A stretch of DNA of 27,849 nucleotides from a virus (IMGVR_UViG_3300046779_000728:1-27849); one strand, 5' to 3'. Counted from the stretch's first letter, positions 1,803 through 21,986 are shown. The notes: generated by a model not told the origin, from the letters alone. Translations and numbers: made by a program.

Positions 1803-2741
1803 ATGAGAATATTGGGAATAAACATATCACATCATCCATCTGTTTGTCAATTGATTGACGGACAGGTGGATTTTTATTTTGAAGAAGAACGATTTAATAG
1901 AAAGAAACATAGCATTCCACCATTTAAATCTGGTAAGTTTATTTCTTTAGAAAAATATTTAAAACAAAAACCAGATTATGTCATTTATGCTTCTTGGGAT
2001 AGAAGCATCCCATCTGGAATTGTTGCAAAATCAGGAATTCATCCAACAGATGAAGAAATAATTCATCAAACTACTTTACAAATAGACAGTTTGGTTGGTG
2101 AACACAATTATATTTTTGAAATAGAACACCACTTATATCATGTGTATTGTGGTTATTATTTTTCTAAATTTGATGATGCTATTTGTATAGTTATGGATGG
2201 TGGTGGTGCTAAAAATGTTTCACAATTCCCAACTTACCAGGAGATTGAAAGTATCTATTACATTGATAAAAATAAATGTGTTCCGAAATATAAAGCATAT
2301 AGTGATTTTAGATTTTCTAACTTGAATACTGAAACTGTTAAAAATATTAATGATATAGAATTTAATTTTTCTAGCAGGTCAAGCAGTGGAATGAAATTTT
2401 CTGCACTATCAGAAGAAATACTTGGGGTTTCAGAAGAGGCTGGAAAGATAATGGGTTTGGCTAGTTACGGAGATTTATCTGGTTCTAGACCAGAAGATAA
2501 AGCAAGACAGTTACAAGAAGAAACTAAGAATCATACAATTGAATTAATAAGAAAGGCTATAACATATTCTGACACAAAGAATATAATACTTTCTGGTGGA
2601 TATTCTTTAAACTGTGTAAACAATTATGAATATTTGAAACACTTTCCAGAATATAATTTTTTTGTAGACCCAGCAGCAAATGATTCTGGCACAGCTATTG
2701 GTGCTGCTCTATGGCTTGAAAGAACTTTACATGATCGTTAA
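1803..2741 (+). CDS. Carbamoyltransferase N-terminal (Kae1-like) half, NodU/CmcH/TobZ family
   Basis: ILGI..SHH, EEERFNRKKH, EHHLYH, DGGG, AGKIMGLASYG, SGGYSLNCVNN and PAANDSGTAIGAA motifs. Confidence 0.9.
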   Translation: MRILGINISHHPSVCQLIDGQVDFYFEEERFNRKKHSIPPFKSGKFISLEKYLKQKPDYVIYASWDRSIPSGIVAKSGIHPTDEEIIHQTTLQIDSLVGEHNYIFEIEHHLYHVYCGYYFSKFDDAICIVMDGGGAKNVSQFPTYQEIESIYYIDKNKCVPKYKAYSDFRFSNLNTETVKNINDIEFNFSSRSSSGMKFSALSEEILGVSEEAGKIMGLASYGDLSGSRPEDKARQLQEETKNHTIELIRKAITYSDTKNIILSGGYSLNCVNNYEYLKHFPEYNFFVDPAANDSGTAIGAALWLERTLHDR

Positions 2742-3261
2742 AGATAAACATACCGTAGTAGAACTTTTATTACAACAAAAAGTTGGTGCTATTTTTCAAG
2801 GATCTAGTGAGATTGGTCCACGTGCACTTGGAAATAGATCTATCATATTTGATCCTAGAAATCCCAATGGTAAAGAAATAGTAAACATCGTTAAAAAAAG
2901 AGAATGGTATCGTCCATTTGCAGGAACTATTATGTTAGAATATGTTCATGAATATTTTGAAATGCTGACACTAAAAGAATCTCCTTGGATGTCATTTGCT
3001 GTAAAGGCTAAACCAAAAGCATACAAAGATATTCCTTCTATTGTTCATGTTGATGGGACATGTAGAATACAGACTGTAACTAAAGAACAGAATAAATATT
3101 TCTATGAACTAATAGAAGAATTTTATAAAAATACTGGAGTTCCAGTGATATTTAATACATCATTTAATCTTGCAGGTGAGCCTCTTGTAGAAACCATAGA
3201 AGATGCTCTCAATACTATAAATAATTCAGATATTTCTTTTTTATATTTGCCAGAAAATTAA
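2731..3261 (+). CDS. Carbamoyltransferase C-terminal (YrdC-like) half
   Basis: EIGPRALGNRSI, VKKREWYRPFA, HVDGTCRIQTV and NTSFNLAGEPLV motifs. The ATG at 2731 overlapping the end of the N-half is preferred over 2680. Confidence 0.9.
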   Translation: MIVKDKHTVVELLLQQKVGAIFQGSSEIGPRALGNRSIIFDPRNPNGKEIVNIVKKREWYRPFAGTIMLEYVHEYFEMLTLKESPWMSFAVKAKPKAYKDIPSIVHVDGTCRIQTVTKEQNKYFYELIEEFYKNTGVPVIFNTSFNLAGEPLVETIEDALNTINNSDISFLYLPEN

Positions 3262-9798: not shown

Positions 9799-12284
9799 TG
9801 GAATTTTATACCACTGCCCAACCATGGGGTGACAAGATCCTCGTTCGAGGATACGATAAAGGTAGACCATATATGCGTAAGATAGATTTCTATCCTACGC
9901 TTTTTGTGCCTTCTAAGACTCCAACAAAGTGGCGCACACTTGAGGGTTCGTATGTTGATGAAGTAAAACCTGGAACAATCAAAGAGACAAAAGAGTTTGT
10001 CAAGAAGTATGAAGATGTTTCTGGCTTTAACATCTATGGAAACACCAACTATTCATATCAATATATCAGTGATACATATGAAGATGATGTAAACTGGGAT
10101 ATGGAAATGATTAAGGTGTTCACAATTGACATTGAGACTGCTACTGAGTATGGTTTCCCAGACATTCGTAATGCCAACGAAGAGATTCTCCTGATTACTA
10201 TCAAAGATTTACAAACAAAAAATATCGTCACATGGGGTTCAAAGCCATACAATAATCAAAGAAAAGATGTCACTTATCATGAATTTGATAGTGAGCAGAA
10301 ACTTCTTAAACACTTCATGATTTGGTGGCAAGAAAACTATCCAGATGTTATTACTGGTTGGAACACTGACTTCTTTGACGTGCCATATCTGATCAATCGA
10401 ATCAATCGAGAGTTGGGTGAAACATTCGCAAAGAAAATGTCTCCATGGAGTATTATCAATCAACGTAATACATTCATCAAAGGTAATGAAGAACAGCACT
10501 ACGATATCTCAGGTATCAGTCAGCTAGATTATCTCGAACTGTATAAAAAGTATACATACAGTAAACAAGAATCATATCGTCTTGATTACATTGCTGAACA
10601 AGAACTGGGTGACAAGAAAAAAGAGAATCCAGGAGATGACTTTCGAGATTTCTATACCAACTATTGGCAGAAGTTTGTTGAGTATAACATTCATGACGTA
10701 GAGTTGGTTGACAAGATGGAAGACAAGATGCGTCTAATTGAACTGCATCTTACCATGGCATACAACGCAAAAATTAATCCAGAGGATGTTTACTCTCAGG
10801 TTCGTATGTGGGATACGATTATCTACAATCACCTACGTAAGAAGGGTATCGTAATTCCAATGAATACTAGTAGTTCAAAGTCTGAACAATTTGAAGGTGC
10901 GTATGTTAAAGACCCACTCATTGGTCAGCACAAATGGATGGCATCGTTTGACTTGAACAGTCTGTATCCTCACCTGATTATGCAATACAACATCAGCCCA
11001 GAAACTCTGACTGATGAAAAGATTCCTGTCACTGTTGACAAACTTCTCGAAAAAGAGATTGATACTTCATATGCAAAACGCAGAGACCTAGCATTGTCTG
11101 CAAACGGATGGTGTTATCGTAAAGACATCAAAGGATTTATGCCTGAGTTAATGGAAATGATGTATGCGAATCGTTCTAAGTTTAAGAAACAGATGCTAAA
11201 AATTCAGCAGGAATATGAAAAGGATAAGTCTCAAAAGCATCTGTTAAAAGATATCTCTCGTCTTAACAATCTGCAGATGGCGATGAAGATCGCACTAAAC
11301 TCTGCTTATGGTGCAATGGGTAATCAATACTTCCGTTACTATGACCTTCGTATGGCAGAGGGAATCACTTTGTCTGGTCAGTTATCCATTCGTTGGATGG
11401 CGAACAAGTTGAATGCATTCCTCAACAAAACTCTTAAGACTCAAGACCAAGACTTTGTAATTGCGATTGACACTGACTCAATCTATCTAAAGTTGGAAGA
11501 ATTGATTGAGAAAGTTTGTGCTGGAAAAGATACTGAAGCCAAGATTAAATACATGGATAGAATTTGTGAAGAAGTTTTTCAACCATTCATTGATCAAGGT
11601 TATCAAGAGTTAGCAGATTACATGAATGCATTTGCTCAGAAGATGCAGATGAAGCGTGAGGTTTTGGCTGACAAGGCAATCTGGACTGCAAAGAAACGCT
11701 ATGTTATTAATGTTCACAACTCAGAAGGTGTTCAATATGCGAAACCTAAGATCAAAGTTATGGGTCTTGAAATGGTCAAGTCGAGTACACCTGCTGTTAT
11801 TCGTGACAAACTTAAAGATTCGTTACAAGTTATTCTGCATGGCACTGAGAAAGATCTTCACAAATATGTAATGGATTTCAGAAAAGAATTTGACAAGATG
11901 CCTGTTGAAGATATCGCATTTCCTCGATCATGTAATGGTGTGAAACAATATGCAGGAAGTCCAATCTATATCAAAGGTACACCAATTCAAGTTCGTGGCG
12001 CACTGCTTTACAATCATCATCTGAAACGACTTGGTCTTGATAAAAAGTATCAACCAATTCGTGATGGTGATAAGATTAAGTTTGTCTATTTACGCACACC
12101 AAATCCTATCCAAGAAGATGTTATTGCATTTAGTCAGCATTTACCAAAACAGCTACAATTGGAAGCATACATAGATTATGATAAACAATTCGAAAAGGTA
12201 TTTCTTGATGCGCTTCAGATTGTTATTGAACCACTAGGTTGGAAGACTCAAGAAGAAACATCACTGGAGGATTTCTTTGGATAA
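9798..12284 (+). CDS. gp43: Family B DNA polymerase
   Basis: DIET (ExoI), GWNTDFFD, YNIHDV, SFDLNSLYP (motif A), KIALNSAYG (motif B), IDTDS (motif C), KKRY; C-terminal SLEDFFG. Confidence 0.98.
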   Translation: MEFYTTAQPWGDKILVRGYDKGRPYMRKIDFYPTLFVPSKTPTKWRTLEGSYVDEVKPGTIKETKEFVKKYEDVSGFNIYGNTNYSYQYISDTYEDDVNWDMEMIKVFTIDIETATEYGFPDIRNANEEILLITIKDLQTKNIVTWGSKPYNNQRKDVTYHEFDSEQKLLKHFMIWWQENYPDVITGWNTDFFDVPYLINRINRELGETFAKKMSPWSIINQRNTFIKGNEEQHYDISGISQLDYLELYKKYTYSKQESYRLDYIAEQELGDKKKENPGDDFRDFYTNYWQKFVEYNIHDVELVDKMEDKMRLIELHLTMAYNAKINPEDVYSQVRMWDTIIYNHLRKKGIVIPMNTSSSKSEQFEGAYVKDPLIGQHKWMASFDLNSLYPHLIMQYNISPETLTDEKIPVTVDKLLEKEIDTSYAKRRDLALSANGWCYRKDIKGFMPELMEMMYANRSKFKKQMLKIQQEYEKDKSQKHLLKDISRLNNLQMAMKIALNSAYGAMGNQYFRYYDLRMAEGITLSGQLSIRWMANKLNAFLNKTLKTQDQDFVIAIDTDSIYLKLEELIEKVCAGKDTEAKIKYMDRICEEVFQPFIDQGYQELADYMNAFAQKMQMKREVLADKAIWTAKKRYVINVHNSEGVQYAKPKIKVMGLEMVKSSTPAVIRDKLKDSLQVILHGTEKDLHKYVMDFRKEFDKMPVEDIAFPRSCNGVKQYAGSPIYIKGTPIQVRGALLYNHHLKRLGLDKKYQPIRDGDKIKFVYLRTPNPIQEDVIAFSQHLPKQLQLEAYIDYDKQFEKVFLDALQIVIEPLGWKTQEETSLEDFFG

Positions 12285-13937: not shown

Positions 13938-14259
13938 TCTACCAATTGTAGTGATGGAGAGTAAGAATACTGGTCTCCAAGCAATTAAATTGACAGAAGG
14001 TCCATTTGAGGGTATAATATTCACTTATGGTAAAGTTGAATTTGATGAAGATGAAACGAATGATAGAGTTAGCATCAAATTCGAATATGAAATCTTAGAC
14101 TATGCAGAAAAAGGTCTAACAGATAAAAAACCTTTTGAAAAATATATTGGCGATATCTTGACTGAGTTAATTCATCAAGGTATTGCTAACAACGATTTAG
14201 TTTATACAGGCGGGATTGATGAGAATCGAACAGAAAATTCTAAGCAGTCTGATTCATGA
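13930..14259 (+). CDS. Conserved T4-like protein at the gene 40 position
   Basis: Lies between uvsX and the helicase, as T4 gene 40 does; function not supported by motifs. Confidence 0.6.
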   Translation: MNNLPIVVMESKNTGLQAIKLTEGPFEGIIFTYGKVEFDEDETNDRVSIKFEYEILDYAEKGLTDKKPFEKYIGDILTELIHQGIANNDLVYTGGIDENRTENSKQSDS

Positions 14260-15610
14260 TGAACAGTATTGTCGTAAAGTTATTCCATTTATAAAAAGAG
14301 ATTATTTTGCAGACAGAAAAGAATCTATCATCACACATGAGATTGTAGAATTCTTTAACAAATATAACAAACCTATTTCCAAAGAGATCCTCTCTATCGA
14401 ACTATCAAATCGCAAAGATTTGAATGACAAAGAACTTGTTGAAGTCAATGAATTTGTAAGTAGTCTTGAGCACGAACCTTCTAACCAAGAATGGTTATTG
14501 GAAAACACAGAAAAGTTTTGTAAGGATCGTGCAGTTTATAATGCAATCCTAGCATCAATTAAAATTATTGATGGAGGAGATAAGGTTCATACTAAAGATG
14601 CGATACCTCATATACTATCTGATGCACTTGCCGTTTCATTTGATAATCATATCGGTCACGACTATTTGGATGACCATGATTCGAGGTATGATTTTTATCA
14701 TAGGGTTGAAGAGAAGATTCCTTTCGACTTGGAGATGTTCAACAAAATCACCAAAGGTGGACTGAGCAAGAAAACACTAAACATTGCACTCGCAGGAACT
14801 GGTGTTGGTAAGTCTCTGTTTATGTGCCATGTTGGTGCAGCATGTTTGGTGCAAGGTAGAAATGTTTTATACATAACTATGGAAATGGCAGAAGAGCGAA
14901 TCGCTGAACGTATTGATGCGAATCTTCTAAACCTAACCATGGATGAATTAAAGGTTATCGACCGAGACATTTACGAGAATCGTATTTCTAAGATTCAGAA
15001 TAAAACTCAAGGTAAGTTAATCATTAAAGAATATCCTACAGCTGGTGCTCATGCTGGTCATTTCCGTGCTCTGTTGGAAGAATTGAAGTTAAAGAGAGAG
15101 TTTAAACCTGACATTATCTTCATTGATTATTTAAACATCTGTGCAAGTCAGCGAATGAAACAAGGTGGAAGTATTAACTCTTATACATATGTTAAGGCAA
15201 TTGCAGAAGAACTGAGAGGTTTGGCAGTTGAGTACAATGTTCCGATTGTATCAGCTACGCAAACAACTCGTTCTGGTTATACTAATAGCGATCCAGGATT
15301 GGAAGATACTTCTGAATCGTTTGGTTTGCCAGCAACTGCTGACTTTATGTTTGCTTTGGTGAGTAATGAGGAACTCGAAGCATTGAATCAAATCATTGTC
15401 AAACAGTTGAAGAATCGATATAACGATCCAAGTTTTTATAAGAGATTCGTTATTGGTATTGACAGAGCAAAAATGAAACTATACGACACCGAAGCGTCTG
15501 CTCAAGTTGGATTGTCTGATGCTGGTAAAGATGACGACACACCAATGTTTGATAAGACTTCATTTGGTAGAAGACAGAAAACAGAATCGTTTGAAGGATT
15601 TAAGTTTTAG
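14219..15610 (+). CDS. gp41: Replicative DnaB-like helicase
   Basis: AGTGVGKS, TMEMAEE, IKEYPT, IDYLNIC, ELRGLA, SATQTTR, SESFGLPATAD and QLKNRY. Confidence 0.97.
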   Translation: MRIEQKILSSLIHDEQYCRKVIPFIKRDYFADRKESIITHEIVEFFNKYNKPISKEILSIELSNRKDLNDKELVEVNEFVSSLEHEPSNQEWLLENTEKFCKDRAVYNAILASIKIIDGGDKVHTKDAIPHILSDALAVSFDNHIGHDYLDDHDSRYDFYHRVEEKIPFDLEMFNKITKGGLSKKTLNIALAGTGVGKSLFMCHVGAACLVQGRNVLYITMEMAEERIAERIDANLLNLTMDELKVIDRDIYENRISKIQNKTQGKLIIKEYPTAGAHAGHFRALLEELKLKREFKPDIIFIDYLNICASQRMKQGGSINSYTYVKAIAEELRGLAVEYNVPIVSATQTTRSGYTNSDPGLEDTSESFGLPATADFMFALVSNEELEALNQIIVKQLKNRYNDPSFYKRFVIGIDRAKMKLYDTEASAQVGLSDAGKDDDTPMFDKTSFGRRQKTESFEGFKF

Positions 15611-15619
15611 GAGAAATAA

Positions 15620-16936
15620 ATGGTAAAGGTAATTGTAGCACAAACTAAACATGATTGCGAGCATTTGCTTGGTCAGTTTCTAGATGAAAGTCATTATGAC
15701 ACTCTAGTAGAAGAAGACTGCGATGTTTATGCTCCATCTTCAATTGGTGGAGAACAAAACGAGAAAAATATTATTTTCAAGTTCCGCAAAAATTTCTTCA
15801 ATAAAGAAGAACAAAATCAGGCATACATTGGTCTGCGTGAAGCAGCAACTGAAACACAGAATCGTGGTATGGCTGCAGGTCCAAGAAAAGAATCTCTTGG
15901 CAATCGTGAGTGGGTTACTGAATATGAATCTGATGTTCTAGATTATTTCTTGGATCCAAAAGCATCACTTGATGGAGATCCAATTGAGATTTTAAAAGAG
16001 AAACACAAGAACAAAACTGATAAACCATCTACACGAAACAATGTTTGGGGTATTCAAGCAGTTAAGCGTGACAACTTTTTATTTGCTGAGTGGGTTGAAA
16101 AGACACGCAAACTAGAGCCATCTGATATGATTAAAGAAGCACGTCGTGTAGAAAAGAATTATGTTTGTGCAACTACATATGCCAATGGTGTTATGTCTGG
16201 TATTGCTGGCTGGTACGATCGTTATCCACGCATTCCGTATGGTCGTGCTACATCTTACACTGCACGTGAGCCAGAGAAGTTTGCGATGGCATTTCCATTT
16301 CTACAATCTCTTGCTCGTGGTTTCAAAGAATTGCTTCCATGGCGTTATAACAATCAGATGGAAGCTGCAAAGAAACTCGATCCAGCATTCTTGGTTCCAG
16401 GAACACCATTCACTACTATTACTGTCAATAAGACATTCAGAACTGCAGCCCATCGTGATGCTGGCGATCTGGATACTGGTTTGTCTAACCTTCTTGTTCT
16501 TTCAAACAATGGTAATTTCACTGGTGGATATTTGATTGCACCTGAGTATCGTGTAGCAGTGAATGTGCGTCCAGGAGATCTACTATTGATTAACAACCAC
16601 GAAGTTATTCATGGCAACACTCCAATTGTTCTTGGTGACGAAGATGCAGAGCGTGTCTCATTGGTAGTTTACTTCCGTGAGAAAATGCTTGAACTTGGTA
16701 GCAAACAATACGAAGATTGTCGTTATGACTTTGTTGAGTCACGTAGAACTAACAAAGAACATCCAGGACAATTCTATGAAGATGGATCAATGCGTCACTT
16801 GTGGAATGGAGTTTCTCCTGGAATGTGGGATTCTCAAGAATGGTATGATTACTGCGAACAGAAACTTGGTCGTGAAGAACTGTTGAAGTATCATCCTGAA
16901 GCAGAGAAAAATAGTCTTGAGGAGTTCTTTGGATAA
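15620..16936 (+). CDS. TET/JBP-family 2OG-Fe(II) DNA base dioxygenase
   Basis: PFTTITVNKTFRTAAHRDAGD (HxD), GGYLIAPEY..AVNVRPGDLLL, HGNT (distal H) and ERVSLVVYFREKM (RxS..Y.R) give the TET/JBP pattern; C-terminal SLEEFFG. Confidence 0.82.
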   Translation: MVKVIVAQTKHDCEHLLGQFLDESHYDTLVEEDCDVYAPSSIGGEQNEKNIIFKFRKNFFNKEEQNQAYIGLREAATETQNRGMAAGPRKESLGNREWVTEYESDVLDYFLDPKASLDGDPIEILKEKHKNKTDKPSTRNNVWGIQAVKRDNFLFAEWVEKTRKLEPSDMIKEARRVEKNYVCATTYANGVMSGIAGWYDRYPRIPYGRATSYTAREPEKFAMAFPFLQSLARGFKELLPWRYNNQMEAAKKLDPAFLVPGTPFTTITVNKTFRTAAHRDAGDLDTGLSNLLVLSNNGNFTGGYLIAPEYRVAVNVRPGDLLLINNHEVIHGNTPIVLGDEDAERVSLVVYFREKMLELGSKQYEDCRYDFVESRRTNKEHPGQFYEDGSMRHLWNGVSPGMWDSQEWYDYCEQKLGREELLKYHPEAEKNSLEEFFG

Positions 16937-17619
16937 TGTGTGCTGTCATAGGAACAATCGTTCAGAATCCATCTATTAATCAGTTAGAGATGATCAAACG
17001 TGTAATCTTCGAGTCTAAGATTCGAGGAATGCATGCTACTGGTATCTCATATGTTAAAAAAAATAGTATTGTTACGCAGAGACTTCCAGTCTCTGCTGAC
17101 AAGTTTCCATTTAACTTTGAATCATATCTAAATGAAGATGGTAATTTGTATATGATTGCTCACTGTCGATATAGCACCAGCGATCTAGAATACAATCAAC
17201 CACTTTTTCATGATACAAAAAGTATTGTTCACAATGGAGTTATCACGCAAGAGTTACCAGAGAATTGGAAAGAGTTATATGGATATGATTGCATTACTAA
17301 AAATGATAGTGAGTTAGTTTTGCATTCAGAAGATCCTTTGCAAGAATTTCCAAATATGTCTATGGGTGTTTGTGAACTTCGAGTTGATAAAACTTTGCGA
17401 TCTTATCGTAATGGTAAGCGTCCGTTATACTTGACAACTTTCAATAATGGATGTATAATTACTTCTACAAAAGACATTCCATATCGTGCAGGTGTTGATG
17501 GGTTCACTACAGAATTCCTAATGAATACATATGTCACATTTGATGAATATCTTGCAATGAGCGTTGAGCGTAAACCTATTACAAATGCAGTAGACTATCA
17601 ACATTATGAACTTTGTTAA
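16936..17619 (+). CDS. Class II (Ntn) glutamine amidotransferase-like protein
   Basis: N-terminal nucleophile MCAVIG, RGMHATG, HCRYSTS, NQP, HNG, NDSE and RPL; TAATG coupling to the dioxygenase. Confidence 0.88.
   Translation: MCAVIGTIVQNPSINQLEMIKRVIFESKIRGMHATGISYVKKNSIVTQRLPVSADKFPFNFESYLNEDGNLYMIAHCRYSTSDLEYNQPLFHDTKSIVHNGVITQELPENWKELYGYDCITKNDSELVLHSEDPLQEFPNMSMGVCELRVDKTLRSYRNGKRPLYLTTFNNGCIITSTKDIPYRAGVDGFTTEFLMNTYVTFDEYLAMSVERKPITNAVDYQHYELC
17431..17459 (+). promoter_or_regulatory. Perfect sigma70 consensus promoter inside the amidotransferase gene
   Basis: TTGACA-17 nt-TATAAT, about 150 nt upstream of the GNAT start. Confidence 0.65.
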
Positions 17620-18247
17620 TTCTACAAAAGTAGAAGAACTAATTAAGAATAGCCCAGCTGGTAAGAATACAAAATTCTTATCAGCAGCACATTCATTGTG
17701 GTATCGTTTTCACAATTACGATAAAGCACCACCAATGGCTTATGAAGATAATGGAGAAATTGTTTCATTGATCTTTGCGACGCACAATCGTGATGGTTAT
17801 GCAAATCTTTATGAAATTGTAACACTTGAGGGTAAAGAAGGAAAAGGATATGCTTCAAAATGCTGGGACAGTTGGATTAAATACGCAGTTGAAGAACGTA
17901 AGTCCCAACGACTTAAGATCTCATGTACTCCGTCTTCCGTTACGTGGCACAATAAAAATGGTCTCATCTTCTGGGCAGTCGATCCAACTGGCTCTCTCAG
18001 ATCTGACCAACCACTATTTCCTACGAGATCAGAACAAGTAACATACAGAAACAATGCTATTGTAAATCCATTACAAGCACTTCCACCTTACAAAGCCAGA
18101 GAACAATTCCGTGCCGAAGGTTTAGAATCCTACAAGTGGGGTGAGAAAAAGAAAGCCAAAACACAAGCTGCTATTGATGCAGTCGGTAAAGCATGGTTGC
18201 GTGATGCTTTAATGGAACAACCATCACTTGAAGAATTTTTAGTATAA
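17606..18247 (+). CDS. GNAT-family acetyltransferase
   Basis: LYEIVT...EGKGYAS (acyl-CoA motif A) and WHNKNGL (motif B-like); C-terminal SLEEFLV. Confidence 0.72.
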   Translation: MNFVNSTKVEELIKNSPAGKNTKFLSAAHSLWYRFHNYDKAPPMAYEDNGEIVSLIFATHNRDGYANLYEIVTLEGKEGKGYASKCWDSWIKYAVEERKSQRLKISCTPSSVTWHNKNGLIFWAVDPTGSLRSDQPLFPTRSEQVTYRNNAIVNPLQALPPYKAREQFRAEGLESYKWGEKKKAKTQAAIDAVGKAWLRDALMEQPSLEEFLV

Positions 18248-19266
18248 TGGATTATCGTTTAGCAGAAAATCGTAAAGAAGCATTTATTCGTTGGTATGCA
18301 TGGTCGTTAAAATATGATGACTGTGACCCAGCAGTATGGATGACTAATTATCTACACAAGCGTTATGAACATAATGACGAACAGCGTCTTTGGTTTGCTT
18401 GGTTGTATGGTAATACGTATTATGCGCCAACATCATGGATTCTATTAAATGAATTTCCAGACTTTGAATTGGCTACTGTAGATCGTATTACTCAATGGAA
18501 TGCAACTAACTATAAAAGACTGCGTTACCAAACAGATACAAAGTGGAACAAAGGTCACTTGCCAGCCATGTTCGCTTCCTATCAAAAATTTATTGGCAAT
18601 AAAACACAACGTGAAGTATTGGAGAGTTATTATGGAGACACAGAAGAAGCAAACTTTAATGCTTTGTGGACAAGCATTAAAAGTGGGTTGCACAAGTTTG
18701 GTCGTTATTCCACTTGGTTTTATCTTCAGCATCTTAAGCATACTGCTGGCATTAGGATTACTCCTACTAGCCTCATGCTTGATGATTTTGATGGCTCTCG
18801 CTCTCATCGTAATGGACTTCTGTATGCCCTTGCACAAGAGCACGATCTGGATAGAAAATTGTCTGGAGGAGATTATGCGAGACTTGAATCACAGGCGAGA
18901 GAGATTCTCGAGGAGACGAAAAGCAGGTTCCCTGAGATAGCCAATGTTGTGGACTATTTCACTATGGAAACTTGCCTCTGTTCTTTTAAAAAGATTTTTA
19001 GGGAACATCATGGTCGATATCTTGGTTACTACCTTGATCGACAGGCTGAAGAAATTATACAAGTCGAAAAAGACGGATGGTATGGAATAGACTGGGATGT
19101 TCTTTGGCAAGCAAGAAACGAAACTATCGATCTTCGTTTGGATGATAAACGTGGTATTGATAAAGAAAGATTTAGTTCTTTTTTAAGAACTGGTAAACTT
19201 GAAAACTTAGAATGGATGTTTGATGATGAAGAACCACTACTTGAAGGATTGGAGATGTTCGCATGA
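18247..19266 (+). CDS. Amino acid:DNA transferase (aGPT-PPlase clade 2-like, HhH-glycosylase fold)
   Basis: DCDP, KFGRYSTWFYLQHL (HhH-like), SHRNGL, ETCLCSFKK and RYLGYYLDRQ; co-located with a P-loop kinase as in thymidine-hypermodifying phages. Confidence 0.78.
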   Translation: MDYRLAENRKEAFIRWYAWSLKYDDCDPAVWMTNYLHKRYEHNDEQRLWFAWLYGNTYYAPTSWILLNEFPDFELATVDRITQWNATNYKRLRYQTDTKWNKGHLPAMFASYQKFIGNKTQREVLESYYGDTEEANFNALWTSIKSGLHKFGRYSTWFYLQHLKHTAGIRITPTSLMLDDFDGSRSHRNGLLYALAQEHDLDRKLSGGDYARLESQAREILEETKSRFPEIANVVDYFTMETCLCSFKKIFREHHGRYLGYYLDRQAEEIIQVEKDGWYGIDWDVLWQARNETIDLRLDDKRGIDKERFSSFLRTGKLENLEWMFDDEEPLLEGLEMFA

Positions 19267-19685
19267 ATGATGATTTAATGACTAACTCTGTAACTTATCC
19301 ATCTATGGCTGATGGAACTATTGATATAAACAAAATTACCATATCAAGCACCAATAGTAATATTCTTACTGCAAATACTGTATATGGATCTATTGCAATG
19401 GAACTTATAACTGACGAAATTTTAGATCGTTACTCTTTAAATAAGATTACAATTGATCACAAAGTGCAGGAACAAGAGTTACTAAAACTTAAAGAAACTG
19501 TTCCTACATATGCAGACGAGATTAAAGAAAATTTGGCTCGCAATATGTCTCGTGATATAATGAAGAAGATGACATTCACGAAAAGGCATGATAAGGATGC
19601 TGATGTCCACCATTTCCTTGGTCGAGTTTGGGTATTCACTGAGGATGAATTAAAGAATCTTATTCAAGAAATAAAGAACGCATAA
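19263..19685 (+). CDS. Hypothetical protein within the modification operon
   Basis: GGAGA SD, ATGA overlap with the transferase, and a 1-nt gap to the kinase. Confidence 0.75.
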   Translation: MNDDLMTNSVTYPSMADGTIDINKITISSTNSNILTANTVYGSIAMELITDEILDRYSLNKITIDHKVQEQELLKLKETVPTYADEIKENLARNMSRDIMKKMTFTKRHDKDADVHHFLGRVWVFTEDELKNLIQEIKNA

Positions 19686-19686
19686 T

Positions 19687-20295
19687 ATGCCAGTCGAGAA
19701 ACTAGCCTTTACTGATAAAATTTCAATGTCTGTTACTACAAGAGAGTTAAAAGTGAGAAAACTAATTGCTGTTGGTGGGAGTCCTGGAACTGGTAAAACT
19801 ACTCTATTCCGTAAGTTTATGGAAGGTAAAACATGGATCGAATGTGAGCCAGCCAAACTGATTTCCGCCATGTATAATGAGGAAATGGATCTCTATATCC
19901 TAGGCAAATATCAGGAAGGTGAGACTTTTGCAGGAACCGATCGCCTATCGATGGCAGTCCAGCCAGAGGTGCAAAAATGGATTCAAACCCATAACTGTAA
20001 TGTGCTATTTGAGGGAGATCGAATCTTCAATCAGTCTTTCCTAGAGTTCGCTATGGGACTCGACCAGACCGACTTACAGGTGGTCTATCTAAAAGCACCT
20101 AAAAATGTCCTAGTACAACGCTATATCGATCGTGGTTCCGACCAGTCGGAGCAATTCCTAAGAGGTCGAGAAACTAAATATAGTAATCTACTATCAAATT
20201 TTGAGTTGATGCCCTATATCACTGAGTTTAATAATACCAACTTAGAGGAGCAGGGAAAGATTCTTGCATTTTTGGAGAAACAACTAGTCCAATAA
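19687..20295 (+). CDS. P-loop kinase, 5-hydroxymethyluracil-DNA-kinase-like
   Basis: GGSPGTGKTT, LGKY...FAGTDRLS, FEGDR and R..RGS.Q lid; gene context with the amino acid:DNA transferase. Confidence 0.75.
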   Translation: MPVEKLAFTDKISMSVTTRELKVRKLIAVGGSPGTGKTTLFRKFMEGKTWIECEPAKLISAMYNEEMDLYILGKYQEGETFAGTDRLSMAVQPEVQKWIQTHNCNVLFEGDRIFNQSFLEFAMGLDQTDLQVVYLKAPKNVLVQRYIDRGSDQSEQFLRGRETKYSNLLSNFELMPYITEFNNTNLEEQGKILAFLEKQLVQ

Positions 20296-20320: not shown

Positions 20321-21037
20321 ATGAATTTCCTAGAAAAATCTGACTACGATTGGCTGGATCTTCTCAATTTCAATGAGAGACCATTCAGGGCTAAACTCAA
20401 CCCTTCTAAGGTCTGGAAAGACCTAGACCGATATCGCAACGATTCGGTTGGACTTGTAAACTACTGTAAGAAATGGCGAACAAAAGTAGAATTTCGTAAA
20501 GAGAAATCTAAAGCGAAATTTTACGAAAAATATATCGCCATTGGTGGGGAATACGATCCAGAGGACAGACAGTGTATCATTCAGATATACACTGATTACT
20601 ACGACAAATTCAAATTCACAGATACTACTTGGGACAAATTTAAGTTTAAGTTCCTACAAGTCTTAATGCATGAGATGATTCACTTCATGCAATATGATAG
20701 AAGATATGATGAATGGAGCAACTATGTCGTTCCTTATAAAAAGATCGGTCATGTAAAGAAAGACGCAGAGAGAAGATATCTCTCTGAGTTTGATGAAATT
20801 CAAGCATATGCTCACTGCATTCTTTTAGATTATAAAATGCTTCGACCAAATGTTCCAATCAATGAACTACTTTCTAGATTCAAAACTAAAAAAGACTCTA
20901 AAACTTTCAATTATATTTTGCGTGTGTTCAATAATGATCATCGCAATAATCATGCAATTCACAAAATAATTCAACAGATAGGCAAGTGGGACAGAAAGTA
21001 CGACAGAGCGATTCGTGCTAATCGAAGACCTAAATAG
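20321..21037 (+). CDS. Zincin-like (HExxH) putative metallopeptidase
   Basis: LMHEMIHFMQ plus downstream YL...DEIQAYA (third-ligand E). Confidence 0.65.
   Translation: MNFLEKSDYDWLDLLNFNERPFRAKLNPSKVWKDLDRYRNDSVGLVNYCKKWRTKVEFRKEKSKAKFYEKYIAIGGEYDPEDRQCIIQIYTDYYDKFKFTDTTWDKFKFKFLQVLMHEMIHFMQYDRRYDEWSNYVVPYKKIGHVKKDAERRYLSEFDEIQAYAHCILLDYKMLRPNVPINELLSRFKTKKDSKTFNYILRVFNNDHRNNHAIHKIIQQIGKWDRKYDRAIRANRRPK
21030..21036 (+). promoter_or_regulatory. T4-like late promoter (CTAAATA)
   Basis: CTAAATA lies 5 nt before the ATG at 21042. Confidence 0.6.
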
Positions 21038-21041
21038 TTGT

Positions 21042-21986
21042 ATGAAAACATTTAGGGAATTTATTTTAGAGATGGCAACAGCGAATACAGTATTATCTGA
21101 TATTAATGAAATCTATACTGGTTATGTTCTTGCAGGAAATAAGTGGTTTGACAGTTCTGCTAAACTACAATATGAACAGCGAGTAAAACAAGCACAACCA
21201 CATGAGGTAGATGATGCTATAGGCAAATCAATTGCTATGGCAGCAGAGTTTGTTAAGTGGGCTAAAGAGAATGGTTATAAACTACCAATAAAACAAGTTT
21301 GGTGGACAGCAAGACCTGGATCGATGTCTTCTGCTTTCGGTGAACCTGTTGATCAAAGAAAAAATCCTACTGATATATTAGTTAAGTTTTCAGATGGTCC
21401 AGCTAAAGGTTTCCTTGGATTATCTGCTAAAGCAACGCAAGGATCTGGAGATATTGGTTTTAAGAATCCAGGTATTGGTACAGTTGATAGAAGTTTAAAT
21501 ATTACATTAGCTGATGAATATAAAAATCAACTAGATCAAACAATAAAGAAATTTAATCTACCAGTTGGTGCCACAGAACGTAAATTATACATTCGTGCTA
21601 ATCCAAAAGTTAAAGTAGAAACTGAAAAAATTGGTGTGCAGATTTTAGCAGCAATGCGTGATGAATTATTTGTTCGCATCAATAAAATGAATCAAAAAGA
21701 ATTAATGAAGTATCTGTTATCAGATTGGATGGACGCAGAAATTCTACGACCACCATATATCAAAGTAACAGGACAAGGTAATAAACCACCATATAAAGCT
21801 ACAGTGATGGATCCAGTGAAAAACGAGAAACTTGAAGCACTCGGAAAATATCCTATCACTCTAGAAAAGGTCGGTAACGAATCCATTGGAGTAAAGGCAG
21901 GGGAAAAAAAGATTATGAAGATTCGATTTAAATTCGAGTCAGAAAAGATGGCTTCCTCCGTAAAACTCTCTGGAGACCCTTGGTAA
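21042..21986 (+). CDS. PD-(D/E)xK-like putative endonuclease with capsid-targeting-like N-terminus
   Basis: Starts MKTFREFILE; N-terminal helix INE; NPTDILV...GLSAK (D...xSxK variant of the restriction-endonuclease-like active site). Confidence 0.6.
   Translation: MKTFREFILEMATANTVLSDINEIYTGYVLAGNKWFDSSAKLQYEQRVKQAQPHEVDDAIGKSIAMAAEFVKWAKENGYKLPIKQVWWTARPGSMSSAFGEPVDQRKNPTDILVKFSDGPAKGFLGLSAKATQGSGDIGFKNPGIGTVDRSLNITLADEYKNQLDQTIKKFNLPVGATERKLYIRANPKVKVETEKIGVQILAAMRDELFVRINKMNQKELMKYLLSDWMDAEILRPPYIKVTGQGNKPPYKATVMDPVKNEKLEALGKYPITLEKVGNESIGVKAGEKKIMKIRFKFESEKMASSVKLSGDPW

Follow-up and report, generated by a model that had tools for sequence, protein, structure and literature searches.

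A TET/JBP-initiated gene cluster of T4-like viruses with a putative glutamine amidotransferase for thymine in DNA

The virus record IMGVR_UViG_3300046779_000728 consists of a single assembly of 27.8 kb (positions 1–27,849), which was analysed at its full length and is referred to below as the window. The window carries a T4-like replication module, with clamp loader subunits, RegA, a ligase, a family B DNA polymerase, UvsX and a DnaB-type helicase, followed by six open reading frames (ORFs) on the plus strand that form a candidate cluster for the modification of thymine in phage DNA. The cluster starts 9 nt after the end of the helicase gene (position 15610) and, as an earlier note on this DNA had described, its genes are tightly coupled: adjacent ORFs overlap by 1–14 nt at four of the five junctions and are 1 nt apart at the fifth. 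In order, the ORFs encode a TET/JBP (5mYOX) dioxygenase (15620–16936, 438 aa), a stand-alone class II (Ntn) glutaminase (16936–17619, 227 aa), a GNAT acyltransferase termed here GNAT1 (17606–18247, 213 aa), an amino acid:DNA transferase (AADT) of the aGPT-Pplase2 family (18247–19266, 339 aa), ORF5 (19263–19685, 140 aa) and a P-loop kinase (19687–20295, 202 aa), predicted to act on 5-hydroxymethyluracil (5hmU) in DNA. The five family assignments made in the earlier note agree with a profile search judged against the curated Pfam cut-offs, which five of the six ORFs exceed: Tet_JBP (92.6 bits against a cut-off of 34.9, E = 2e-26), GATase_6 (29.4 against 27), Acetyltransf_1 (23.1 against 20.7), ADDT (77.8 against 26.2, E = 1.4e-21) and Ploopntkinase3 (32.1 against 27). 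ORF5 has no family in Pfam, PHROGs, NCBIfam or ESM Atlas; it was detected in 56 of the 68 clusters having the kinase in view and is not essential to the cluster. The T4 gp41-like helicase (14216–15610, plus strand, Pfam DnaB_C) precedes the TET gene in related loci as well and is a fixed upstream neighbour.

Related loci were retrieved from IMG/VR using the AADT (80 of 215 confirmed), the Ntn protein (22) and the TET protein (80 of 171) as queries. The co-occurrence of the cluster genes, on which the earlier note made its proposal depend, is beyond chance: the Ntn gene lies between TET and AADT in 105 of the 106 locus records spanning TET to kinase, a redundant set that includes the window itself, and the sole exception is Caulobacter phage Cr30. 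Even in two more distant T4-like loci where the gene order differs and the AADT is 55–58% identical (L273 and L281), TET, Ntn, AADT and kinase are still found together. Patterns built for the Ntn protein matched about 680 IMG/VR stretches, and a GTDB scan yielded one locus, on a phage-like contig within a metagenome-assembled genome. TET homologs are present in nine records of cultured phages; this Ntn or GNAT was found in none of the four cultured-phage TET neighbourhoods examined, and GNAT1 had zero matches among 50,697 phage records.

The iron and 2-oxoglutarate ligands of the TET protein (H278, D280, H331 and R345) are invariant in all 96 sequences compared. The motifs RYPRIPY and FTTITVN, recognised by eye, also occur in constructs 5mYOX177-197 (O'Toole et al., PNAS 2026, PMC13229309). 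These motifs are clade C1-like, and the enzyme is predicted to oxidise thymine to 5hmU in DNA, a reaction that the literature shows for phage 5mYOXs of clades C1 and C2. The label ‘SNF2’ attached to TET homologs in GenBank was dismissed as a misannotation. The source of the substrate was surveyed in six complete or near-complete relatives, four of the GNAT type and two carrying an amidoligase-like gene. ThyX is encoded in all six, and a thymidylate-synthase-family protein, hydroxymethylases included, in none, using a search that recovered the hydroxymethylases of phages ViI, PaMx11 and Simon (3/3); a C5-methyltransferase was likewise found in 0/6, the controls of that search being cellular genomes only. 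Neither a C5-methyltransferase nor a dUMP hydroxymethylase is encoded within the window, as previously noted. Ordinary dTTP is therefore likely made and 5hmU would arise in the DNA itself; thymine, favoured in the earlier note, is the likely substrate of this TET protein.

ParB, a partner of some clade C1 enzymes, is not encoded in the window, and PF02195 matched 0/6 complete relatives and a ParB-like query 0/7. These are weak negatives, as are all family searches made without a phage positive control: the same type of search, using PF13522, missed the known Ntn gene of one genome (G001). Some amidoligase-type loci do carry a nuclease/ParB-like ORF. In many of them an ORF of about 440 aa with weak homing-endonuclease and ParB-like matches precedes the AADT gene (L204:9495-10811, L273:9468-10790, L281:9503-10822); this ORF is absent from the six complete relatives.

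The kinase is 24% identical to YuA gp13 and 26% identical to PaMx11 gp49, has the G-x-Y, DR and EG positions in common with them and bears a Walker A motif at residue 30; it is predicted to be a 5hmU-DNA kinase (5-HMUDK) linked to the AADT. PF18723, the kinase helical domain, matched nowhere, controls included, and the PHROG label ‘terminase small subunit’ was dismissed as a misannotation. The metal ligands and catalytic cysteine of the AADT (E241, T242 and C245, in the pattern E-T-x-x-C) correspond to E243, T244 and C247 of the PaMx11 enzyme. Published accounts of the AADT mechanism (Wen 2024; PMC13458397) place two lysines of the YuA enzyme, K159 and K248, on the carboxylate of glycine. These align to F158 and S246 of the window AADT, with F at position 158 in 78/78 clusters and S or A at position 246 in 78/78, and glycine was excluded as the donor because both lysines are missing. 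The AADT would instead eliminate phosphate from phospho-5hmU (5-PmdU) and add ammonia. A structure model of the AADT was of low confidence (pLDDT 58) and gave nothing at E ≤ 0.001 in Foldseek; phmmer found no AADT in the PDB.

The Ntn protein has no acceptor domain of its own. Its alignment to Escherichia coli GlmS (4amv) pairs C2, R30, R78, T81, N100, G101 and D124 with Cys1, Arg26, Arg73, Thr76, Asn98, Gly99 and Asp123. These glutamine-site residues are invariant in 78/78 clusters (95% identity), whichever tailoring gene follows, so that the Ntn protein as a vestige was excluded. For GlmS-equivalent residues other than Arg26, Trp74 and the cysteine, the catalytic roles are presumably those of GlmS. 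Its predicted role is to supply the AADT with ammonia, as a subunit of that enzyme.

Two lines of evidence bear on this pairing. The first is a predicted Ntn–AADT complex with a score of 0.89 (a measure of model confidence only), whereas the highest-scoring of three controls had 0.00; among reference pairs, 116 of 157 solved and 2 of 215 mismatched ones reached the mark applied to such scores. At least 92% of the contacts were in common between runs, with a partner pLDDT of at least 88, and the result supports binding. The Ntn side of the interface comprises residues 28–33, 79–81 and 101–107, where R30 and Y79 align to Arg26 and Trp74 of GlmS, residues that take part in domain communication and in opening the ammonia channel (PMC7000685). 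The Ntn protein is thus predicted to bind the AADT via the face by which ammonia leaves the glutaminase. Conservation is higher at the interface than elsewhere in both the AADT (0.96 versus 0.82) and the Ntn protein (0.90 versus 0.68), taken over all positions rather than surfaces alone and with active-site residues included.

The second line is that of natural fusions. Searching 1.84 billion representatives with a profile yielded 395 clusters of the AADT family, and among the best 150, which were examined, eight are Ntn–AADT fusions with the glutaminase at the N-terminus. Each belongs to a separate 50% cluster and is 35–43% identical to the window AADT; six start with MCG, one with MGCG and one lacks the start cysteine. 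The AADT interface motif R39/E41/E69/P71 is kept in 8/8 fusions, and their aligned Ntn parts keep R30, Y79, R162, P163, S177 and T178. The motif is not found in the AADTs of ViI, YuA, PaMx11 or Cr30, and the records of ViI, PaMx11 and Cr30 gave no Ntn match in a search aimed at close relatives. Being independent of the complex model, the fusions are evidence, drawn from sequence, that the Ntn protein probably serves the AADT. Other AADT fusions were also seen (P0002, P0004, P0045, P0053, P0088 and P0119), comprising low-molecular-weight (LMW) phosphatase–AADT, AADT–kinase and TET–AADT arrangements.

GNAT1 has about 100 extra C-terminal residues. It is assigned to GNAT clusters in ESM Atlas (0.99), contains a motif-A-like GKGYAS at residue 79 and, in a low-confidence model, retrieved GNAT-type acetyltransferases as every listed Foldseek match; its predicted reaction is N-acylation of the amine newly formed on DNA. 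The slot between Ntn and AADT is variable: in 225 locus records it holds GNAT1 (144), an amidoligase-like gene accompanied by a different GNAT or an LMW phosphatase (80) or a GNAT1–nuclease fusion (1), proportions that are biased by the use of the amidoligase as a query in one search. The amidoligase call itself is based on weak matches (Pfam E = 0.017; PHROG amidoligase E = 7.5e-5 to 0.003) and on an ExE/HxH/ExR motif pattern that we take to be typical of the family. In the 186 loci where Ntn and AADT are both full-length, a set from which 39 shorter records had been removed, GNAT1 and the amidoligase never occur together (0/186), and the amidoligase is nowhere in four complete GNAT1 genomes, with a positive control genome. 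The Ntn protein here therefore has no amidoligase to feed, and the idea that it partners an amidoligase encoded outside the cluster was excluded. On a quick version of the AADT tree the slot changes 13 times, and at least five changes for GNAT1 are forced by well-supported branches. Zero columns of the AADT or Ntn alignments discriminate the GNAT1 from the amidoligase types, which excludes a module-specific pocket in either protein. The Ntn–AADT step is therefore constant and the step that follows it is swapped.

The same swap is found downstream of an enzyme whose product is established. PaMx11 gp47, a flavin adenine dinucleotide (FAD) enzyme, makes 5-aminomethyl-deoxyuridine (5-aminomethyl-dU, 5-NmdU) according to Lee 2022 (PMC8989533) and Wen 2024. 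Phage Simon (PQ683277.1, an unannotated record) has a glycine-type AADT with both lysines, a gp47-like FAD enzyme (42%), a kinase and a hydroxymethylase-family gene, and in place of the gp48 acetyltransferase it carries an amidoligase together with an LMW phosphatase, both with relatives in the sister loci (L282:5882-13561); a sensitive search with two positive controls found no glutamine amidotransferase (GATase) there. Among 20 IMG/VR loci with a gp47-like gene, six have a gp48-like GNAT, 12 an amidoligase (ten of them with the phosphatase), two neither and none both; the set includes near-duplicates and PaMx11 itself, and none of the loci contains Ntn or TET. Where the amine-making step is known, the GNAT and the amidoligase can therefore replace one another downstream of it, and the amidoligase does not depend on a GATase. 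No FAD gene lies between Ntn and AADT in the 225 locus records, a genome-wide search for such a gene not having been made. The simplest reading is that Ntn and AADT make the same amine directly. Simon-type clusters predict, in turn, an undescribed amide-linked thymine base; the Simon amidoligase used as a query found no viral loci. In Vibrio phage 2.275.O (L283:8896-14104) a related amidoligase adjoins queuosine-pathway genes and a stand-alone Ntn gene, and the family may also tailor 7-deazaguanines.

The family B polymerase of the window ends in SLEDFFG (12261–12281, plus strand), and the same motif ends TET (SLEEFFG), GNAT1 (SLEEFLV) and the AADT (GLEMFA). Counted over unique tails, it is present in 25/29 polymerases, 66/74 TET, 26/27 GNAT1, 77/80 AADT and 12/43 GNAT2 proteins, and in 0/105 Ntn, 0/77 kinase and 0/35 amidoligase proteins and none of the other families with at least four tails; the pattern was defined after the tails had been seen. 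The short acidic-hydrophobic tails of T4 gp43, gp55 and gp33 are of this type and bind the sliding clamp (PMC2988020). By analogy, TET, AADT and GNAT may ride the clamp by their polymerase-like tails, which suggests DNA as the site of GNAT1 action, to which the AADT would bring the Ntn protein.

A perfect sigma70-type promoter, TTGACA-17-TATAAT, lies on the plus strand inside the Ntn gene (17431–17459), where it would drive GNAT, AADT, ORF5 and the kinase. A match of at least 11/12 is present in 56 of the 70 clusters examined. Where residue 166 is Leu, 64 of the 65 codons are TTG (background 19%), and where residue 174 is Ile, 66 of the 67 are ATA (background 11%); the promoter is thus kept by synonymous codon choice. 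It appears placed to drive whichever tailoring gene occupies the slot. Just two perfect sigma70 consensus promoters are present in the window, both intragenic, the other one at 13990–14018, before the helicase gene.

Taken together, the cluster would encode a post-replicative line. In its first step, thymine of the phage DNA would be oxidised to 5hmU by TET/JBP, and the P-loop kinase would convert 5hmU to phospho-5hmU. A two-subunit Ntn–AADT amidotransferase would then swap the phosphate for glutamine-derived ammonia, giving 5-aminomethyl-dU, and GNAT1 would N-acylate the amine, probably to 5-acetamidomethyl-dU (5-AcNmdU), with acetyl as the presumed group. The modification would presumably protect the DNA from host nucleases. 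The line from TET through kinase and Ntn–AADT to GNAT, leading probably to the base of PaMx11 by another route, is given a probability of roughly two in three, with ammonia from glutamine as the probable nucleophile. A more specific form of this proposal is put at about even odds: Ntn and AADT would be a class II amidotransferase for a DNA base, tethered to the clamp, post-replicative and independent of PaMx11, and the amine would be a hub, capped with an acyl group here and amide-linked, possibly gamma-glutamyl, in the amidoligase sisters. The post-replicative route, the thymine substrate, the supply of ammonia from glutamine by the Ntn protein and N-acylation by GNAT had all been put forward in the earlier note, and genome context, fusions and the predicted complex favour them; the novelty then claimed for the route does not stand.

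Several observations weigh against the amination proposal. The closest characterised AADT is a serine transferase, ViI gp247, at 26% identity, and Ackermannviridae matches are at 28–29%; K248, K249 and R265 of the window AADT are invariant and could bind a carboxylate. The pocket mapping was made by sequence alignment at 15–17% identity, the complex score carries the limit given above, and the interface motif occurs in 42/110 AADTs, 34 of which are unfused with gene neighbours out of view. GNAT1 is not detectably related to PaMx11 gp48 (E = 2.2). A characterised diamine transferase had only marginal activity with small monoamines (PMC13458397), and some clade C1 enzymes lacking ParB gave no activity in O'Toole 2026 (PMC13229309). 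The literature search returned no report of an AADT using ammonia and no assay of any enzyme from this lineage.

Of the rival explanations, the one that survives best keeps the complex and gives the Ntn protein another task, that of a gamma-glutamyl hydrolase: the AADT would install glutamine, through its amide nitrogen, or a gamma-Glu-X, and the Ntn protein would remove glutamate before GNAT acts. This follows the install-then-hydrolyse logic of EgtA and EgtC. The conserved Ntn pocket fits the gamma-amide of any free alpha-amino acid, an amidoligase-like gene adjoins Ntn in sister phages, and an Ntn–AADT complex or fusion would suit such a scheme as well. An amide nitrogen is, however, a poor nucleophile, GNAT1 genomes lack the ligase, the amidoligase is also found without any Ntn, after an FAD enzyme, and the Ntn face buried in the predicted interface corresponds to the one from which, in GlmS, the ammonia channel is reached. 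Overall this explanation is unlikely. Hydrolysis of an attached Gln or Glu adduct was also the alternative offered in the earlier note; it would leave 5-aminomethyl-U only if the adduct were linked via the side-chain amide nitrogen, and it is retained in that form as a minor rival.

An amino acid may instead be what the AADT transfers, a serine-like one as in ViI, with GNAT acetylating its alpha-amine and the Ntn protein serving amidation or another reaction. Such a scheme would accord with the relation to ViI gp247 (26%), with the invariant basic residues of the AADT pocket and with the amidoligase and GATase pairs of phages such as PaP3. It is a decidedly unlikely one, given that the Ntn site is intact in GNAT1 genomes that have no amidoligase, that Ntn and AADT are fused in eight clusters and that amidoligase loci without Ntn are common. 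A narrower departure accepts the amine and doubts its fate, the end product being some base other than 5-AcNmdU, either because another acyl group is added or because most amines are left free. In its favour are the lack of relationship between GNAT1 and gp48, the additional C-terminal region of GNAT1 and its replaceability; the GNAT fold, the GKGYAS at residue 79 and the polymerase-like tail count for acetylation of DNA, acetyl-CoA being the commonest GNAT donor, and a different end product is improbable. That the substrate is not thymine (host-made 5-methylcytosine (5mC), for example), or that the DNA is left largely unmodified, is very improbable: phage 5mYOXs can oxidise both T and 5mC (O'Toole 2026; Burke 2021) and many tested homologs have low activity (O'Toole 2026), but no C5-methyltransferase was found in the six complete relatives, the characterised kinase/AADT pairs act on 5hmU (Lee 2022, PMC8989533), and the catalytic residues are invariant.

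If the amination proposal is true, a glutamine amidotransferase acting on DNA would be a new type of enzyme, and two convergent routes would lead to one modified base. A DNA chemistry would be predicted for a widespread, uncultured T4-like group, and three enzymatic steps would place a primary amine on thymines in any DNA, a useful handle for labelling. In Lee 2022, the amidotransferases and amidoligases that neighbour genes for thymidine hypermodification are named among activities still to be discovered; specific predictions can now be made for both.

The surroundings of the cluster show further features. After the kinase in most loci comes a conserved ORF with an HExxH motif (window 20321–21037), followed by a slot (21015–21986) of variable ORFs that have no Pfam family, several with PD-(D/E)xK-like motifs by eye; they possibly encode nucleases that leave modified DNA intact. 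A few loci (L146, L147 and L154) have radical SAM genes between AADT and kinase. A NodU/NolO-like carbamoyltransferase is present in the window as two overlapping ORFs for its N- and C-terminal domains (1803–2741 and 2680–3261); one long ORF is found in L151, and the split may be a frameshift or an assembly error. Caulobacter phage Cr30 (L001:9001-17894) and L292 combine TET, AADT, a TET-associated glycosyltransferase-like gene, inositol-1-phosphate synthase and kinase, without an Ntn match. The Cr30 AADT as a query found two loci only. Cr30 is a cultured phage and thus an accessible test case for another unknown base.

Clusters of the present kind have been described. TET_JBP contigs with kinase and AADT are reported by Lee et al. 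(2022, NAR 50:3001, PMC8989533), whose available text leaves the association with amidoligases and amidotransferases unexplained; Burke 2021 notes a kinase and aG/PT-PPlase beside TETs. O'Toole et al. (2026) show phage T-dioxygenases and link clade C1 to GATases, P-loop kinases and AADTs. As here, the clusters of Lee 2022 and O'Toole 2026 comprise TET/JBP, P-loop kinase, AADT and GATase, with T oxidation as the presumed start and neither hydroxymethylase nor C5-methyltransferase. A TET-initiated route with a GATase was therefore already in print, contrary to the earlier note's description of the pathway as new. The function and product of the GATase are left unassigned in the accessible text of both papers. 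No paper was found that gives the GATase a role or names the product, and no report of a glutamine amidotransferase-type enzyme acting on DNA; figures, Iyer et al. 2013 (NAR) or the supplement of Burke 2021 may note links or fusions of GATase and AADT. Compared with clade C1 in the available text of O'Toole et al., no ParB was found in this lineage and the TET protein is longer (438 aa, against constructs of about 300–330 aa).

The pathway of PaMx11 to 5-AcNmdU (gp46 AADT, gp47 FAD oxidoreductase, gp48 GNAT and gp49 kinase) has the kinase, the catalytic core of the AADT and a GNAT in common with the window; the predicted intermediate, 5-NmdU, and the likely end product are the same, and GNAT and amidoligase are swapped among PaMx11 relatives too. 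In PaMx11, however, 5hmU is made at the nucleotide level and the amine comes from glycine and the FAD enzyme, whereas the present cluster has TET and Ntn, no FAD enzyme and an unrelated GNAT. For relatives only, the literature establishes kinase/AADT chemistry that passes through an exocyclic methylene and, in PaMx11, the acetylation of 5-NmdU, which there is the work of another GNAT. Phage ViI, whose gp247 serine:DNA transferase of the 5-NeOmdU pathway is the nearest characterised AADT by sequence (26%), differs from the cluster in using a hydroxymethylase and a pyridoxal phosphate (PLP) decarboxylase, and it has neither the interface motif nor an Ntn match. With class II amidotransferases (GlmS/GFAT, PurF and AsnB) the Ntn protein has in common the N-terminal Cys nucleophile and the glutamine pocket, and the fused homologs repeat their order of glutaminase, then acceptor. 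Unlike in those enzymes, the acceptor here is a helix–hairpin–helix-type DNA transferase, the predicted substrate is a base in DNA and the two parts are encoded by separate genes. The feature is thus real and its kind of cluster already in print; what is probably new is the use of a glutamine amidotransferase on DNA.

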